NCBI RefSeq assembly: GCF_030013205.1
Contig: NZ_CP122648.1
Source: Escherichia coli
GTDB taxonomy: Bacteria > Pseudomonadota > Gammaproteobacteria > Enterobacterales > Enterobacteriaceae
Direction: 5' to 3' (one strand)
DNA: 64,000 nt
The notes beneath the pieces are model-generated. The model worked only from the letters and a program-made list of their open reading frames with translations. It searched no databases and had not been told where the DNA came from. The position numbers were made by a program, and so were the translations under genes. Positions within the stretch are counted from its first letter, which is position 1, and every line of letters begins with the position of its first letter. This document shows positions 49,034 to 58,248 of this stretch, piece after piece.

Positions 49034-49117
49034 CGCTCAAATATCAACCAGATTTATCATTTTGCTCTTAAGCGCAGCATTCTAATCTGAACTGGTTATT
49101 CATCTGCGGAACCTCAT

Positions 49118-49207
49118 ATGAGCGAAGCTCTCGGTATCACTGCATTTTATATATTCATAGCCGCGATTATTGTTGCTGCAGTGCTATACCTTGAACAACG
49201 CTGGTAG
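49118..49207 (+). CDS. candidate 29-aa single-pass membrane peptide (MSEALGITAFYIFIAAIIVAAVLYLEQRW)
   Basis: Short ORF below the track cutoff, translated by hand; one hydrophobic helix; weak RBS; no homology evidence. Confidence 0.2.
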   Translation: MSEALGITAFYIFIAAIIVAAVLYLEQRW

Positions 49208-49330
49208 CGCCTGGTTTTATTTATTTTCCAGCTCAATAGCAAATTCAGATCAAATCAGCCTCGCAAATCATAGATTCATAACCAATAATGTGCTGTTATG
49301 TATACATGCAAAAACAAGGAGAGAATGCTT

Positions 49331-49759: not shown

Positions 49760-49829
49760 TTGCCAGAATAAATATCCCGCCCTGCCCGGAGCCATCCCGG
49801 CGGGGCTTTTTATTGCCATAATAAATATC

Positions 49830-50535
49830 CTCCGGCATAGCCGGAGGTTTTTCAAATGCGCCTATAAGGCTCTCTTACCAGCCGCGCCCTAACAGGCGCA
49901 CACGATCTGACATTTGCATCCAACTTCGTTACTTACGGCCCGTAAACGGGCTGCCCGGATAGGGAATCGATAACTGCTCTCCCATTTTATCCTCTTCAAG
50001 CTGGTGCTTTATGTAATCCTGTATCTTCGCCGTGTTCTTACCCACTGTATCGACGTAGTACCCTCTGCACCAGAACTCCCTGTTCCTGTATTTGAATTTC
50101 AAATCACCAAACTGCTCGTAAAGCATCAGACTGCTTTTCCCTTTCAGATATCCCATAAACCCGGATACGCTCATTTTGGGCGGGATCTCCACAAGCATAT
50201 GGATATGATCTGCACAGCATTCAGCTTCCAGAATCCGTACGCTTTTCCACTCACACAGCTTTCTCAAAATACTGCCTATTGCTCTACGCTTCTCTCTGTA
50301 GAACACCTGTCTTCGGTATTTTGGCGCAAAAACTATGTGATATTTACAGTTCCATCGGGTGTGCGCTAAGCTCTTTTCGTTCCCCATTGGGACCCCCTTT
50401 TGATTTCTTGTTTGACACTTGCAGTTGCCAGACCGCAAGGTGTTTTAACAAATCAAAAGGGGTTTTAATAACTGGCTCAAAGCTGAAAGCTTTCCGGAAC
50501 CCCCAGCCTAGCTGGGGGTTTTCTGTGCACAAAAA
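49830..50535 (-). mobile_element. IS200-family insertion sequence (boundaries approximate, +/- about 30 bp)
   Basis: Contains a 152-aa Y1 (HUH) transposase gene; upstream of it the characteristic perfect hairpin CCCCCAGC-CTA-GCTGGGGG (50500-50518) and a second stem-loop (CCCCTTTTGATTTG..CAAATCAAAAGGGG) occluding the RBS; size about 0.7 kb as expected for IS200. Confidence 0.8.
49929..50387 (-). CDS. tnpA: IS200 transposase TnpA (Y1/HUH)
   Basis: MGNEKSLAHTRWNCKYHIVFAPKYRR..ADHIHMLVEIPPK.. with HUH motif HIH; near-identical to the IS200 TnpA I recall from Salmonella; the track ORF starts 17 codons upstream. Confidence 0.9.
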   Translation of the reverse strand: MGNEKSLAHTRWNCKYHIVFAPKYRRQVFYREKRRAIGSILRKLCEWKSVRILEAECCADHIHMLVEIPPKMSVSGFMGYLKGKSSLMLYEQFGDLKFKYRNREFWCRGYYVDTVGKNTAKIQDYIKHQLEEDKMGEQLSIPYPGSPFTGRK

Positions 50536-52890: not shown

Positions 52891-53261
52891 CTATACTTCC
52901 TCCGTGTTTTCGATGAGATGTAAGGTAACCAATTTTTGCCGATTCGGCTAATGCGTTTCCATTATCAAATCGATAAGTTTTACCTTACAACCTTCGTAAG
53001 ACAACTTTGTGAACTTTGCACCGCCAGCGGCGATAAAAAGTAAAATGGCCCCCTTTCCAGGTGACCGTGTAATCTGAACTACCCTTTGGTATCTTCAGCG
53101 CCTGCCTGCAGGCTGAGGTGTTGCCCTTACAAATGCAACAACGACATGGATTACAACACCCTCATAAACAAAGGGCAATCACCTGATCTAAGCTCTTACC
53201 TATGGCAGTGATAGGTTATGCCTTTTACCCGACTTTTGCACTGACTGAAAAGGACAAATTA

Positions 53262-54008
53262 ATGTTAAAAAAGATACTTTTACTGGCTCTGCTTCCTGCA
53301 ATCGCCTTCGCAGAGGAACTTCCTGCCCCAGTAAAAGCGATTGAAAAACAGGGCATTACAATCATCAAAACGTTCGATGCTCCCGGAGGAATGAAAGGTT
53401 ATCTCGGAAAGTATCAGGATATGGGCGTCACCATCTACCTGACTCCAGATGGTAAGCACGCTATCTCCGGTTACATGTACAACGAGAAAGGTGAAAACCT
53501 GAGTAACACACTTATCGAAAAAGAAATTTACGCACCAGCCGGACGCGAAATGTGGCAACGGATGGAACAATCCCACTGGCTCCTCGACGGTAAAAAAGAC
53601 GCGCCGGTCATTGTTTACGTCTTCGCCGATCCGTTCTGCCCATATTGTAAACAGTTCTGGCAGCAGGCGCGCCCGTGGGTAGATTCTGGCAAAGTGCAAT
53701 TAAGAACATTGTTGGTTGGGGTTATCAAGCCAGAAAGCCCGGCGACAGCAGCGGCAATTCTTGCCGCCAAAGATCCCGCAAAAACCTGGCAAGAATATGA
53801 AGCCTCTGGTGGCAAGCTTAAGCTAAACGTGCCTGCAAACGTAAGTACAGAGCAAATGAAAGTGTTAAGCGACAACGAGAAACTCATGGACGATCTGGGG
53901 GCAAATGTCACACCAGCTATCTACTACATGAGTAAGGAAAATACACTGCAACAGGCCGTGGGGTTGCCCGATCAGAAAACGCTTAATATCATTATGGGGA
54001 ATAAATAA
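53262..54008 (+). CDS. dsbG: periplasmic thiol:disulfide isomerase DsbG
   Basis: 248 aa from [17 protein letters not shown] (signal peptide); CPYC active site; the track ORF starts 20 codons upstream. Confidence 0.9.
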
Positions 54009-54215
54009 AAGATAATTCATGGATGGTTGAAATATATCCCTGTTTTTCAACCATCCTAAAAAAGCATGAATTGCTCGCTCTGCCCTAAGTGGCTGTGCTA
54101 TTTTAGAAAAACTTAATTCTGAGTTAAGCAAAAAAACATAATACAAATAAATACAACAGCAACATTATTGAACAAATGAATGATTTATAGAAGAGATAAT
54201 ATAACGGAGTATGTT

Positions 54216-55118
54216 ATGGCGAATCTTTATGACCTAAAAAAATTTGATCTGAATTTACTGGTCATATTTGAGTGCATTTATCAACACCTCAGCATTAGCA
54301 AAGCAGCAGAATCATTATATATAACGCCCTCTGCTGTTAGTCAGTCGTTACAACGTTTACGTGCGCAATTTAATGACCCGTTATTCATTCGCTCAGGGAA
54401 AGGTATCGCGCCGACTACGACAGGGTTAAATCTGCATCATCATCTTGAGAAAAATCTCAGAGGCCTTGAACAAACGATCAATATTGTTAATAAGTCTGAG
54501 CTAAAGAAAAATTTTATTATCTACGGTCCTCAGCTTATTTCTTGTACTAATAACAACATGCTAATCCGCTGTCTTAGACAAGATACTTCAATCGATATAG
54601 AATGCCATGACATACTGCTTTCAGCTGAAAATGCCGAAGAACTGTTGGTTCAACGCAAAACTGACCTGGCAATTACACTACAACCAGTAATTAGCCGCTC
54701 TGTCATCTGCATGCCGTTACATACTATTCGCAATTCTCTTATATGTAGCAACAAACATCCTCGTATTACCGATACCAGTAACTATGAACAAATTATCGCC
54801 GAAGAATTCACCTTGTTGATATCTAAATCAGCAGGGATTGACGAAATTCAAATGGACATAGATGAACGTTTTATGAACCGTAAAGTTTCATTTCGCAGTT
54901 CTTCTTTGTTGACGATAATTAATAGTATTTCTGTTACTGACTTATTGGGCATTGTGCCCACCGAACTGTACGATTTACATCGTGATTTTTTGAAGTTACA
55001 AGAGATAAAACTGGAACAACCACTTCCTGCGGTTAAACTTTATATTTCCTATAACAAGGCTTCGTTGAACAACCTTGTCTTCTCACGATTCATAGATCGT
55101 TTAAATGATAGCTTCTGA
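54216..55118 (+). CDS. ybdO: LysR-family transcriptional regulator YbdO
   Basis: 300 aa from MANLYDLKKFDLNLLVIFECIY.. (HTH ..ITPSAVSQSLQRLR..); strongly AT-rich; the track ORF starts 12 codons upstream. Confidence 0.85.
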   Translation: MANLYDLKKFDLNLLVIFECIYQHLSISKAAESLYITPSAVSQSLQRLRAQFNDPLFIRSGKGIAPTTTGLNLHHHLEKNLRGLEQTINIVNKSELKKNFIIYGPQLISCTNNNMLIRCLRQDTSIDIECHDILLSAENAEELLVQRKTDLAITLQPVISRSVICMPLHTIRNSLICSNKHPRITDTSNYEQIIAEEFTLLISKSAGIDEIQMDIDERFMNRKVSFRSSSLLTIINSISVTDLLGIVPTELYDLHRDFLKLQEIKLEQPLPAVKLYISYNKASLNNLVFSRFIDRLNDSF

Positions 55119-55264
55119 TTTAATACCACTGATAAATGTTATATTACGCATCAATTGATTCATTGTGTGAATATAAAATAATGTGCTCTATCTTGCTTCG
55201 TTTACCCTATAATTAGCGGATTCATCTCACGAGTCACCCCGTAACGTTCAGAGAGCGTTTTCAG

Positions 55265-56485
55265 ATGTCTATTTATAAAATCCCGCTTCCACTGAATATT
55301 CTGGAAGCTGCAAAAGAACGTATTACCTGGACACTTAACACCCTACCCCGCGTCTGCGTTTCTTTTTCGGGTGGTAAAGATTCCGGATTAATGCTGCATC
55401 TGACCGCCGAACTTGCCCGACAAATGGGCAAAAAAATTTGTGTTTTATTTATCGACTGGGAAGCTCAGTTCTCTTGCACCATTAACTATGTTCAGTCCCT
55501 GCGCGAGTTGTACACCGATGTCATCGAAGAGTTTTACTGGGTTGCACTCCCGCTTACAACGCAAAATTCCCTATCACAATACCAACCCGAATGGCAGTGC
55601 TGGGAACCTGATGTCGAATGGGTACGTCAGCCTCCGCAAGATGCGATAACCGATCCTGACTTTTTCTCCTTTTACCAGCCAGGCATGACCTTCGAACAAT
55701 TTGTGCGTGAGTTTGCCGAATGGTTTTCACAAAAACGTCCGGCGGCGATGATGATCGGCATCCGTGCGGATGAGTCCTACAACCGTTTTGTCGCCATCGC
55801 CAGTTTAAATAAACAACGTTTTGCCGATGATAAGCCCTGGACCACTGCCGCACCAGGCGGTCATAGCTGGTACATTTACCCCATCTACGACTGGAAAGTC
55901 GCTGATATCTGGACCTGGTATGCAAATCATCAAAGTCTCTGCAACCCACTGTATAACCTAATGTATCAGGCAGGCGTTCCTCTGCGTCATATGCGAATTT
56001 GCGAACCTTTTGGCCCGGAGCAACGACAAGGATTATGGCTCTATCACGTTATCGAACCGGATCGCTGGGCTGCTATGTGCGCACGAGTCAGCGGGGTAAA
56101 AAGTGGCGGCATTTACGCCGGACATGACAACCATTTTTATGGTCATCGGAAAATCCTCAAGCCCGAACATTTAGACTGGCAGGAGTATGCATTATTGCTA
56201 CTCAACAGCATGCCGGAGAAAACAGCTGAGCATTATCGCAATAAAATCGCCATTTATTTGCACTGGTATCAGAAAAAAGGCATCGAGGTTCCACAAACCC
56301 AGCAAGGGGACATTGGCGCGAAAGATATCCCCTCCTGGCGGCGAATATGCAAAGTTTTACTCAATAACGATTACTGGTGTCGGGCATTATCATTTAGCCC
56401 GACCAAAGCGAAGAACTATCAGCGTTATAACGAACGAATAAAAGGAAAACGTCAGGAATGGGGGATACTATGCAACAACGATTAA
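55265..56485 (+). CDS. ybdN: PAPS-reductase-like PP-loop ATP-pyrophosphatase family protein YbdN (IbrA homologue)
   Basis: 406 aa; PP-loop motif VSFSGGKDSGLM near the N terminus. Confidence 0.85.
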   Translation: MSIYKIPLPLNILEAAKERITWTLNTLPRVCVSFSGGKDSGLMLHLTAELARQMGKKICVLFIDWEAQFSCTINYVQSLRELYTDVIEEFYWVALPLTTQNSLSQYQPEWQCWEPDVEWVRQPPQDAITDPDFFSFYQPGMTFEQFVREFAEWFSQKRPAAMMIGIRADESYNRFVAIASLNKQRFADDKPWTTAAPGGHSWYIYPIYDWKVADIWTWYANHQSLCNPLYNLMYQAGVPLRHMRICEPFGPEQRQGLWLYHVIEPDRWAAMCARVSGVKSGGIYAGHDNHFYGHRKILKPEHLDWQEYALLLLNSMPEKTAEHYRNKIAIYLHWYQKKGIEVPQTQQGDIGAKDIPSWRRICKVLLNNDYWCRALSFSPTKAKNYQRYNERIKGKRQEWGILCNND

Positions 56486-57087
56486 CGCAGGATTTAACCC
56501 AATTTCTCGCCAGCTTGCCGGAAGACGATCGCATCAAAGCGATTAATGAAATCCGCATGGCGATCCATAAGGTCAGTCCTTTTCGTGAAGAGCCGGTGCA
56601 TTGTGTTTTGTGGGTGAAAAATAGCCAGCTCGTGCCGAATGATTACAATCCCAATAATGTGGCACCACCAGAGAAGAAACTGCTGCAAAAATCCATTGAA
56701 ATAGATGGCTTTACGCAACCCATTGTGGTCACGCATACAGATAAAAATGCTCTGGAAATTGTTGATGGTTTTCACCGCCATGAAATAGGTAAAGGCTTAT
56801 CATCGTTAAAATTACGCTTAAAAGGTTATTTGCCAGTAACCTGTCTGGAAGGTACACGTAATCAACGCATCGCCGCGACTATTCGTCATAACCGCGCCCG
56901 TGGTCGCCATCAAATCACTGCCATGTCCGAAATTGTTCGTGAACTCAGCCAGTTGGGATGGGACGATCATAAAATCGGCAAAGAGCTGGGAATGGACAGC
57001 GACGAGGTGCTGCGCCTGAAACAAATTAACGGCCTGCAAGAACTGTTTGCCGACCGTCAATTTTCCCGCGCATGGACGGTTAAATAA
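56458..57087 (+). CDS. ybdM: ParB/sulfiredoxin-like domain protein YbdM (IbrB homologue)
   Basis: 209 aa; DGFHRHE motif of the ParB/Srx (DGQHR-like) fold; overlaps ybdN by 28 nt. Confidence 0.8.
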   Translation: MGDTMQQRLTQDLTQFLASLPEDDRIKAINEIRMAIHKVSPFREEPVHCVLWVKNSQLVPNDYNPNNVAPPEKKLLQKSIEIDGFTQPIVVTHTDKNALEIVDGFHRHEIGKGLSSLKLRLKGYLPVTCLEGTRNQRIAATIRHNRARGRHQITAMSEIVRELSQLGWDDHKIGKELGMDSDEVLRLKQINGLQELFADRQFSRAWTVK

Positions 57088-58248
57088 CTACAGCTGGCGC
57101 AGGCGTTCAGCGGCTGCCAGCAACGTCGATTCCTTCTTGGCAAAACAGAGACGAATCAGTTTATGGGGGAAGGGATCGGCGCAAAACACCGACAGCGGAA
57201 TCGCCGCTACACCGTGCTCCCGCGTCAGCCACTGGCAAAACTCAACATCATCCAGCGTAGACACGGCGCTGTAATTCACCAGCAAAAAGTATGTACCTTC
57301 GCACGGTAAAATCTCCAGCCGGCTTTCACTTAAGGCATTCACCAGAATATCGCGTTTTTGGCGATAAAAGTCCGGTAACGCAAGATAATGCTCAGGTTCT
57401 GCACGTAGCATATCCGCAAGTGCCAGCTGTGCCGGGGTATTCACCGAAAAGGTCAGATACTGGTGTACCTTGCGAATTTCAGCGCTGATGGGCGCTGGCG
57501 CAACGCAATAACCCACTTTCCAGCCGGTCATATGATAGGTCTTGCCAAATGAAGAAACTGCCACCGCCCGCTCACGCAGCTGCGGATGCGCCAGCACGCT
57601 GGCATGGCCCTGTTGTGAAAAGTTGATGTGCTCGTAAACTTCATCGCTAATGACAAAAATCTCGTGCCCGGCAATTGCCTGCCACAAAGCGGCGAAATCA
57701 GCCTGCTGCCAGACAGTTGCACTGGGGTTATGCGGGGTGTTGAGGATCACCTGTCGGGTGCGCTCGCTTAACAATGCGGCAAATTCCTGCCAGTCCACGC
57801 GAAAATGCGGTGGTTGCAGTGCAATACGTTTCACTATTCCCCCCGAAAGCGCGATGGCGGGCGCGTAACTGTCATAGCTGGGATCAAAGCAGATCACTTC
57901 ATCACCATTGCGCACCAATGCGGTAATCGCTGCATATAACGCTTCCGTCGCCCCTGCCGTTACGGTGATATCACTATCGGCATCCGGTTGATAGCCATAC
58001 AGACGTTCCGTTTTCTGAGCAATCGCCTCGCGCAAGGCCTGCACGCCAGTCATAGGCGCGTATTGGTTTGCCCCCTGGTCAACATGGTACGCCAGCCGCT
58101 CCTGCAAATAGCGCGGACCATCAAAATCAGGAAAGCCTTGCGACAGGTTAATCGCCTGGTGTTGCTGCGCCAACGCGCTCATCTGGGTGAAAATAGTGGT
58201 GCCAAGTTGTGGAAGTTTGCTTTGTGGAATCAGAGGGTTATTTGTCAT
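57088..58248 (-). CDS. ybdL: methionine aminotransferase YbdL (PLP-dependent)
   Basis: 386 aa; PLP-lysine context SSFGKTYHMTGWKVGY; its stop codon abuts the ybdM stop. Confidence 0.9.
   Translation of the reverse strand: MTNNPLIPQSKLPQLGTTIFTQMSALAQQHQAINLSQGFPDFDGPRYLQERLAYHVDQGANQYAPMTGVQALREAIAQKTERLYGYQPDADSDITVTAGATEALYAAITALVRNGDEVICFDPSYDSYAPAIALSGGIVKRIALQPPHFRVDWQEFAALLSERTRQVILNTPHNPSATVWQQADFAALWQAIAGHEIFVISDEVYEHINFSQQGHASVLAHPQLRERAVAVSSFGKTYHMTGWKVGYCVAPAPISAEIRKVHQYLTFSVNTPAQLALADMLRAEPEHYLALPDFYRQKRDILVNALSESRLEILPCEGTYFLLVNYSAVSTLDDVEFCQWLTREHGVAAIPLSVFCADPFPHKLIRLCFAKKESTLLAAAERLRQL

Follow-up and report, generated by a model that had tools for sequence, protein, structure and literature searches.

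What do the two proteins encoded by ybdN and ybdM of Escherichia coli do? This question is raised by a stretch of 64,000 nucleotides (the window; contig NZ_CP122648.1 of assembly GCF_030013205.1), in which the genes ybdO (citR), ybdN and ybdM occupy positions 54216-57087 of the plus strand. Both belong to the E. coli core proteins that still lack a known activity, and no biochemical activity of either is reported in the searchable literature, as the first-pass annotation of this DNA had also stated. The locus itself is a known core locus, correctly seen there as conserved and annotated rather than as a new island: the 3.3-kb region is present in 5422 of 5426 complete E. coli genomes, its genes are annotated in RefSeq as citR, as 'phosphoadenosine phosphosulfate reductase' (ybdN) and as 'IbrB-like domain-containing protein' (ybdM), and the family name, the regulator and the silencing have been described before. 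Added here are the nearly absolute coupling of the two genes in different domains of life, a recurrent SNF2 helicase, the lack of a conserved cysteine, the identification of CysD and FMN adenylyltransferase as the closest relatives with solved structures, strong purifying selection and an unexplained link to the cys regulon. The best reading of these data, as yet unproven, is a nucleic-acid-directed modification module; in its more specific form, which we put forward tentatively, ybdNM would encode an adenylating module of two subunits that is directed to DNA and alters either DNA itself or targets bound to it.

The property that distinguishes the pair most clearly is its coupling. In the window, ybdN (55265-56485, plus strand, 406 residues) and ybdM (56458-57087, plus strand, 209 residues), both taken from the six-frame open reading frame (ORF) list, overlap by 28 nucleotides (56458-56485), an arrangement suited to translational coupling. 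Both proteins have the hallmarks of the IbrA/IbrB family, being a PAPS_reduct plus DUF3440 protein and a ParB-fold partner with the motifs YNPN, DGFHR and TIRHNRARGxH, encoded by adjacent, co-oriented genes that overlap or abut. When one genome for each of 100,044 species was scanned with the PP-loop pattern of YbdN alone, 80 loci were obtained, from Proteobacteria, Verrucomicrobia, Firmicutes, Bacteroidetes, Tenericutes and one Heimdallarchaeote. A YbdM homologue is found in 79 of these, and in the 80th the contig stops at the ibrA stop codon; the pairing is therefore far beyond chance. The partner lies directly downstream on the same strand in 77 loci, and the order ibrA-ibrB is kept in 77 of 79. 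The -28 overlap is common to the Citrobacter, Pseudocitrobacter and Superficieibacter orthologues, and the gap in other phyla is mostly about -20 to +15 nucleotides.

The same coupling is observed in viruses. Among 50,697 phage records, YbdN is found in 224 and YbdM in 226, with identical counts for the two proteins in phages of Flavobacterium (90/90), Mycobacterium (60/60), Streptococcus (21/21), Arthrobacter (12/12) and Bacillus (8/8). A scan of viral contigs with a single sequence returned only one close locus, so that an alignment query was needed; both genes are then present in 70 of 80 IMG/VR viral loci, in a more variable order than in genomes. Virulent phages also have the pair. Clearly, the two genes are inseparable, whether in different bacterial phyla, in hundreds of phages or in an archaeal virus lineage, and the tight coupling noticed in the first-pass annotation extends far beyond E. 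coli. Both genes are also functional in E. coli, as follows from their nonsynonymous-to-synonymous rate ratios (dN/dS) of 0.01-0.05 at a synonymous divergence (dS) of 0.2-0.44. The pair was modelled with AlphaFold2 (AF2) as a YbdN-linker-YbdM fusion with a Gly-Ser linker, using 21 paired orthologues. The model (predicted template-modelling score 0.61, moderate confidence) has extra β-strands at YbdN residues 5-11 and at the conserved C-terminal tail of YbdM, which is suggestive only, but compatible with a docked complex. Natural IbrA-IbrB fusions were sought among the long proteins P0123, P0176, P0190, P0257 and P0235, whose extensions are unrelated sequences or frameshift tails.

The catalytic part of the pair is expected to reside in YbdN, in which the PAPS_reduct domain (residues 30-234, Pfam E-value 1.2e-13; nucleotides 55352-55966) is followed by a DUF3440 domain (residues 237-344, 5.1e-23, with a further match at 352-383; nucleotides 55973-56413); there is also a weak PP-loop match to ATP_bind_3 (8e-4) and a match to phrog_2302 (4.5e-77). 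The PP-loop SGGKDSG (residues 35-41, nucleotides 55367-55387) was confirmed by direct reading. Matches at E<=1e-3 in a library of 1.84 billion proteins comprise only 1686 cluster representatives, and from this library 50 homologues with 26-49% identity were aligned. Residues G37, K38, S40, D64, E66, W113, W119, S171, D214 and Y230 are invariant in this alignment, S35, G36 and D39 (each at least 90%) as well as R121, R167, E170, R174 and D209 are nearly so, and all motifs of the PAPS-reductase family are retained. The SGGxDS motif and the α/β ATP-pyrophosphatase fold place YbdN in the PP-loop ATP pyrophosphatase superfamily, as had been proposed from the motif, and the closest solved relatives are CysD, the PAPS domain of FAD synthase (an FMN adenylyltransferase) and the CysH/APS reductases. 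In this superfamily, an intact PP-loop goes with ATP-using members and with conversion of ATP into AMP and PPi; by analogy, the same chemistry is expected for YbdN, since its PP-loop is intact as in those members. Of the two halves of YbdN, the catalytic one is neutral, and that with DUF3440 is uniformly basic (median pI 9.3, net charge +8).

The RefSeq name of YbdN is probably a misnomer, because no cysteine is conserved. CysH catalysis requires a C-terminal cysteine in an ECGLH motif, and no invariant cysteine is present in the alignments of either family; the best cysteine column of YbdN (43 of 50 homologues) has Ala94 at this position in the E. coli protein. This speaks against both a thiol mechanism of the CysH type and an Fe-S or persulfide mechanism of the DndC or TtuA type. 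A CysH identity was rejected as well on the scores, 35.5 bits against a cut-off of 254 (TIGR02057) and 34.3 against 154 (NF002537), and YbdN likewise stays far under the NCBIfam cut-offs of CysD, DndC and TilS.

The best profile match of YbdN among solved structures is CysD (4.7e-10), and this match bears on the possibility that the pair is a small-molecule nucleotide or sulfur enzyme. YbdN would then act as an adenylyltransferase resembling CysD, or would use (P)APS, and would make a metabolite or signal rather than mark nucleic acid, and the ParB-fold partner would substitute for the GTPase CysN as the NTPase driving or gating the reaction. CysD does work as a heterodimer with an NTPase (1zun), the intact PP-loop is the same, and SerK, SbnI and sulfiredoxin are examples of ParB folds that act as small-molecule or protein kinases. 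The expression data of Rodionova et al. (2022, PMC9068703) can be read in the same direction: on deletion of citR, ybdN rises by log2 5.5 and ybdM by log2 2.5, and in Table 1 of that paper the CysB regulon (cysAWU, cysDNC, cysHIJ, tcyP and yeeE) rises by log2 1.7-3.2. These genes have no confirmed CitR peak, and their induction is left undiscussed by the authors. It may be that derepressed YbdNM drains a sulfur intermediate, but this is a correlation only, from one data set, and the flagellar regulon shifts there too. CysN is an EF-Tu-like GTPase, whereas the partner of YbdN is a ParB-fold protein with a helix-turn-helix-like segment; moreover, YbdN differs from CysD and FAD synthase by its basic DUF3440 domain and a Trp-rich insertion, and linkage to cys genes is found in 0 of 160 loci (80 genome and 80 viral), nor are flavin genes linked. 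Small GNAT or cupin genes within some operons would fit a metabolic role, whereas the SNF2 partner and the placement among phage DNA-replication and packaging genes, described below, do not. A small-molecule enzyme is therefore regarded as improbable.

The YbdM family is conserved to an unusual degree, with 40-50% identity between the E. coli, Firmicutes and Bacteroidetes proteins. The ParB/Srx fold assigned to it in the first-pass annotation is borne out by a Pfam match to ParB_N (residues 54-109, 3e-4) and by fold comparison, which recovers the ParB N-terminal domain fold with its phosphate-binding G-x-x-R motif; in addition, YbdM matches phrog_2159 (1.6e-67). The ParB/Srx core is encoded by nucleotides 56593-56847, the TIRHNRARGRH motif by 56878-56910 and a helix-turn-helix-like segment by 56965-57021. 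In an alignment of 52 homologues the motifs YNPN, D-G-F-H-R and T-I-R-H-N-R-A-R-G-x-H are invariant (D103, G104 and R107 strictly, H106 in at least 90%), and the C-terminal half contains the helix-turn-helix-like segment LGMDxDEvLRLKQ followed by a conserved EFSxxW tail. The DGFHRHE sequence (residues 103-109, nucleotides 56764-56784) is aligned with the GERRxRA box of Noc and ParB, opposite 'AGERRWR' in the Noc structure 7ol9, and the box itself is not present in YbdM, which has DGFHRHE where Noc carries GERRWRA. A C-terminal dimerisation domain was not found either, the family ending about 20 residues past the helix-turn-helix-like segment. Judged by these sequence features, YbdM is a ParB/Srx-fold protein that does not appear to be a canonical CTP clamp of the ParB, Noc, KorB or VirB type, from which it also differs in being near-absolutely tied to a PP-loop partner. 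According to a 2025 PNAS survey (PMC12704722), neither the sequence nor AlphaFold3 tells which NTP a protein of this fold prefers. In a 2022 paper the YbdM protein, described as "completely uncharacterized", is 29-fold up in cells with a blaCTX-M-15 plasmid, and its overexpression costs 10% of the growth rate.

As the two superfamilies are those of DndC and DndB, a minimal Dnd- or Ssp-like DNA phosphorothioation or anti-phage defence module had been suggested for the pair. The likeness is real in outline: in DndC/DndB (and SspD, BrxP) a PAPS-reductase-like PP-loop ATP pyrophosphatase is likewise combined with a ParB/Srx protein carrying a D-G-x-H-R motif and acting on DNA, and weak local matches of YbdN to DndC (21.9 bits, 1.9e-5) and BrxP (18.5 bits, 1.2e-4) are seen with PADLOC, both sub-threshold. 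However, the score against the DndC model TIGR03183 is 22.3 bits for a cut-off of 290.4, and the search of YbdM with DGQHR/DndB models gave no match at E<=1e-3, its only NCBIfam match at this level being Noc (21 bits). YbdN differs further by its DUF3440 domain and by lacking a conserved cysteine dyad or cluster, and the gene order is reversed. The genes dndA, dndD, dndE, sspB and sspC are absent from the window and none of them, nor a restriction partner, recurs in the 160 loci. The family is common in phages, and the E. coli operon is core and repressed. As the DndC, DndB, CysH and PADLOC models are unmatched, the suggestion is not supported, and Dnd/Ssp membership is largely refuted; we regard it as very unlikely.

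The neighbourhoods of the pair were compared in the same 160 loci, using our own ORF calling and clustering. An SNF2-like helicase (about 400-420 residues; phrog_62; SNF2-rel_dom 1.5e-8) is the gene immediately preceding ibrA in 16 of the 65 genome loci that are not enteric (L028-L031, L036-L038, L043, L045, L054, L056, L058, L059, L066, L076 and L090) and in 22 of 80 viral loci (for example L146:1538-2794), and it is also present in Lactobacillus phage AQ113 and in Flavobacterium FCOV phages; further positions are L002:2833-3999 and L005:3240-4448. In these cases SNF2-ibrA-ibrB forms a three-gene cassette, and the helicase is missing from the enterobacterial ybdNM operon. The viral neighbours include the large terminase (12 loci, about 1.5 kb downstream), a DNA methyltransferase (8 loci) and, recurrently, a second helicase, a primase, SSB, a RecE-like exonuclease, Sak4 and an amidoligase. 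Actinophages have the arrangement ParB-like, IbrA, IbrB, (methyltransferase), terminase, and in phages of lactic acid bacteria the pair follows the lysin gene. No restriction, Dnd, nuclease/effector or other defence family recurs beside the pair in the 80 genome and 80 viral loci. With recurrent phage DNA genes and no recurrent defence family, the pair goes with genes for the DNA metabolism and packaging of phages rather than with defence islands; of the linkages anticipated in the first-pass annotation, that to mobile, phage-type DNA modules is thus found, and enrichment beside defence genes is not. Taken together with the model searches described above, the pair is seen from its sequences to be distinct from Dnd, CysH and the known defence systems.

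These neighbours also bear on the idea that the pair modifies tRNA or rRNA and thereby changes the translation of particular genes, as might be imagined from the PP-loop enzymes TilS, MnmA, ThiI, TtcA and TtuA. The TilS-type enzymes are more distant from YbdN than the group of CysD, FAD synthase and CysH, cysteines for sulfur transfer are not conserved, a ParB/Srx partner and an SNF2 helicase are companions of a DNA type, and the phage neighbours are DNA-metabolism genes. Such an RNA-directed activity is considered quite improbable. A role as small terminase or in packaging recognition was also rejected, as phage Laroye encodes a separate TerS and the copies in bacteria lie away from terminases.

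Several smaller genes are inserted in or near the pair. A GNAT acetyltransferase gene lies between ibrA and ibrB in some operons, an ectoine-synthase-like cupin gene precedes ibrB in others, and a 142-residue protein that could not be annotated is encoded upstream of ibrA in 12 Bacteroidales loci (for example L077:7583-8008); inserted genes are located at L094:2438-2872, L006:5308-5697 and L041:1125-2225. These may be tailoring enzymes. The guess that the 142-residue protein is a GNAT enzyme was withdrawn, since nothing in Pfam or PHROG matches it.

Within the family, a phenotype is known only for the IbrA/IbrB proteins themselves, which are reported (Sandt et al., 2002, as cited in later papers) to enhance the expression of silent eib genes in strain ECOR-9. 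The homology of the E. coli pair with IbrA/IbrB, previously recognized from the sequence, is supported by an island-borne E. coli ibrAB-like paralogue with 59% identity to YbdN and 57% to YbdM, and by the RefSeq name 'IbrB-like'; the accompanying statement that these genes belong to prophage-borne eib loci does not hold for ECOR-9, where ibrAB is on its own genetic island, as the title of Sandt et al. (2002) states. A DNA search for distant relatives with the Citrobacter paralogue gave 8088 places, which are spread over 5420 E. coli genomes and include 118 on plasmids; the ybdNM locus itself is contained in this count, at about one place per genome. Two paralogue contexts were inspected (L091:8983-10832 and L092:8929-10784). 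One adjoins a fimbrial and surface-polysaccharide cluster with PapB/PapI regulators, and the other is an island with a PerC-family regulator, insertion sequence elements, integrase remnants and a TerB-N/ATPase/DEAD-helicase trio. The architecture is the same, PAPS_reduct and DUF3440 followed by an overlapping gene for an IbrB-like ParB protein, but ybdNM belongs to the core chromosome, where it lies between dsbG and ybdL as an operon controlled by CitR and H-NS, whereas the ibrAB genes are carried by accessory islands and plasmids, beside PerC or fimbrial regulators.

These contexts are what would be expected if the pair were a non-covalent anti-silencer or activator, in which YbdM/IbrB, like VirB or KorB, acts as an NTP-dependent, DNA-bound protein on silent prophage or late genes, either by displacing H-NS or by recruiting RNA polymerase, and YbdN/IbrA is a nucleotide-processing cofactor rather than a DNA modifier. 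VirB is a CTP-dependent ParB-like anti-silencer, and late-gene activators are usually located just upstream of the terminase, where the pair is found in several phages. Besides the reported activation of eib, the co-induction of ibrB and the adjacent PerC-family regulator gene perC in Shiga-toxin-producing E. coli on epithelial cells and the PapB, PapI and PerC regulators and surface-factor genes of the paralogue islands are in agreement with this. The replacement of GERR by DGFHR and the missing dimerisation domain are not, and a constant ATP-pyrophosphatase site, the basic DUF3440 domain and the frequent SNF2 helicase are left unexplained by it; virulent phages, too, have the pair. Non-covalent anti-silencing is possible, but on balance doubtful.

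In the adenylating module that we tentatively prefer, YbdM and YbdN would be two subunits of one IbrA/IbrB-family machine. YbdM would bind NTP and DNA and would target, position or activate YbdN, which would spend ATP (giving AMP and PPi) to adenylate an oxygen atom, either of DNA itself or of a target bound to DNA. This covalent change would be independent of protein persulfides and Fe-S clusters and would alter the transcription of silent, AT-rich or late genes; phages might mark their genome in this way around the time of packaging. In E. coli the operon is held off by CitR (YbdO), whose gene is itself silenced by H-NS. We infer here a physical complex, DNA as the substrate, adenylation chemistry and an effect on transcription. 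This proposal is favoured because the PP-loop is conserved and the ATP-using adenylyltransferases CysD and FAD synthase are among the closest solved relatives, because YbdM combines a ParB/Srx fold and invariant motifs with a helix-turn-helix-like segment, because both genes occur together at 79 of the 80 loci in genomes and at 70 of the 80 in viruses, with nearly identical genus counts in phage records, and because of the upstream SNF2-like helicase and the recurrent viral DNA-metabolism neighbours. The uniformly basic DUF3440 domain, the low dN/dS values of both genes, the reported activation of Eib expression by IbrAB and, as a suggestion only, the strands gained in the fused AF2 model also speak for it. 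There is a precedent in the ParB-like ATPase DpdB, which powers the DNA-modifying enzyme DpdA. In the DpdA-DpdB system of 7-deazaguanine DNA modification a ParB-like NTPase partner is likewise required by the DNA-modifying enzyme, and SNF2-type helicases are found in Dpd clusters; DpdA is, however, a tRNA-guanine-transglycosylase homologue and not a PP-loop enzyme, and Dpd is a restriction-modification-like defence island. Together, the CysD-CysN and DpdA-DpdB heteromers are precedents for an NTPase partner that drives enzymes of this kind.

Several observations weigh on the other side. For no member of the family is there a demonstrated modification, substrate or complex, and no desulfurase or amidotransferase donor enzyme recurs beside the pair in the 160 loci. 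With a median pI of 6.25, the conserved YbdM core is mildly acidic, many bacterial copies are located amid housekeeping genes (pgi, mutL, lpxK and clpC) with no DNA-related neighbour, the confidence of the fused AF2 model is only moderate, and the rise of the cys regulon on loss of citR speaks just as well for a sulfur-containing small molecule as the substrate.

It can further be imagined that IbrA/IbrB-type pairs, including YbdNM, form a widespread, unrecognised machine for the modification of DNA or nucleoid proteins, in which a ParB-fold NTPase loads a CysD-like adenylyltransferase to set a cysteine-independent mark, acting as a packaging or late-gene switch in phages and in H-NS desilencing in enterobacteria. 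In this general form the proposal is speculative and rather unlikely. If true, it would mean a new epigenetic chemistry inside the E. coli core genome. If the substrate is DNA, a new modification chemistry would account for the phenotype described as 'co-activator of prophage gene expression'; if it is a sulfur or nucleotide metabolite, the widespread label 'PAPS reductase' for auxiliary metabolic genes in phage genomics would need correction. As deletion of citR derepresses the operon, the question is directly testable in K-12.

The regulator of the operon is well defined. YbdO (54216-55118, plus strand), the LysR-type repressor of ybdNM also named CitR, matches Pfam HTH_1 (1.8e-18) and LysR_substrate (2.9e-10) and scores 452.9 bits against the CitR model NF047710 of NCBIfam (cut-off 400); the annotated start at 54216 lies inside a longer ORF of the six-frame list, 54180-55118 on the plus strand. 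Control of the pair by YbdO, previously a conjecture, is documented by a CitR ChIP-exo peak upstream of citR-ybdNM and by the derepression in the deletion strain (PMC9068703), and the suspected silencing of ybdO by H-NS, through upstream and downstream elements, is shown by Higashi et al. (2016, PMC4720273). According to that work the transcription start is 107 nucleotides upstream of the start codon, and the H-NS-dependent upstream element (URE) extends from -250 to -176. The ybdO promoter and this element fall in the dsbG-ybdO intergenic region (54009-54215, plus strand), and the ybdO-ybdN intergenic region (55119-55264, plus strand) is the probable ybdNM promoter/operator. Consensus scans for promoters and terminators and a repeat search around ybdO and ybdN gave nothing above chance, apart from a hairpin downstream of dsbG; the sigma-70 scan of the dsbG-ybdO region and a promoter-like match at 55155-55182 in the ybdO-ybdN spacer are included in this statement. 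A LysR gene is found beside the pair in only 9 of 80 genome loci, those of Escherichia, Citrobacter, Pseudocitrobacter and Superficieibacter, so that ybdO is a lineage-specific regulator and not a part of the YbdNM machine.

The AT-richness of ybdO (16 G+C in the 60 nucleotides at 54481-54540) was reproduced exactly by our counts, as were the coordinates, the overlap and both motifs reported in the first-pass annotation. The G+C content is 37.4% for ybdO, 30.0% for the dsbG-ybdO spacer and 35.6% for the ybdO-ybdN spacer, to be compared with 47.3% for ybdN, 46.3% for ybdM, 53-57% for ybdL, ybdH and cstA, and 51% for the whole window. The gene is also unusual in its divergence. Compared with the common E. 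coli allele, the ybdO of the window has 80% nucleotide and 88% amino acid identity, a dS of about 2.0 and a dN/dS of 0.03, and the divergence peaks over ybdO and both spacers (68-86% identity, window 54000-55400), with flanks of 96-100%; the dsbG-ybdO spacer is 80-87% identical to the common allele, and between E. coli alleles the identity of the ybdO-ybdN spacer is 68-84%. With the 3.3-kb region as query against 5426 genomes, an identity of at least 99% is seen in only 18, and the 80-90% band holds 3549. The placement of ybdO within the top 50 substitution rates (Higashi et al., 2016, PMC4720273) is in line with these values. The combination of saturated dS and strong purifying selection suggests old allele classes or introgression rather than relaxed constraint.

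The locus is surrounded by ahpF, ahpC, dsbG, ybdL, ybdH/hcxA, ybdD and cstA. The convergent genes ybdM (end 57087) and ybdL (end 57088) have abutting stop codons (window 57085-57090), leaving no room for terminators, and ybdL-ybdM is listed as a convergent excludon (PMC12288877). Natural disruptions of the locus are also observed. In E. coli ET120 (L008:6218-7587), among the few genomes without the locus, the IS5-like element ISKpn26 cuts ybdO after about 100 nucleotides, and the deletion extends to just before entF, so that ybdNM, ybdL, cstA, entCEBAH and fep genes are gone; citR is frameshifted in strain mussel_type_A_ST536 (L009:6218-7121), and ybdM is broken into two ORFs in E. albertii NBRC 107761 (L012). 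Within the ybdO-ybdN-ybdM locus an Rfam search gave no match; outside it, the enterobacterial small RNA STnc70 is matched in the ahpC-dsbG intergenic region (53035-53128, minus strand, 44.1 bits for a gathering score of 40). Compared with mussel_type_A_ST536, the window lacks about 1.6 kb with yldA and ybdR between rnk and uspG (49037-49312), and it has about 700 extra bases between uspG and ahpF (49826-50527), with an ORF at 49929-50438 on the minus strand.

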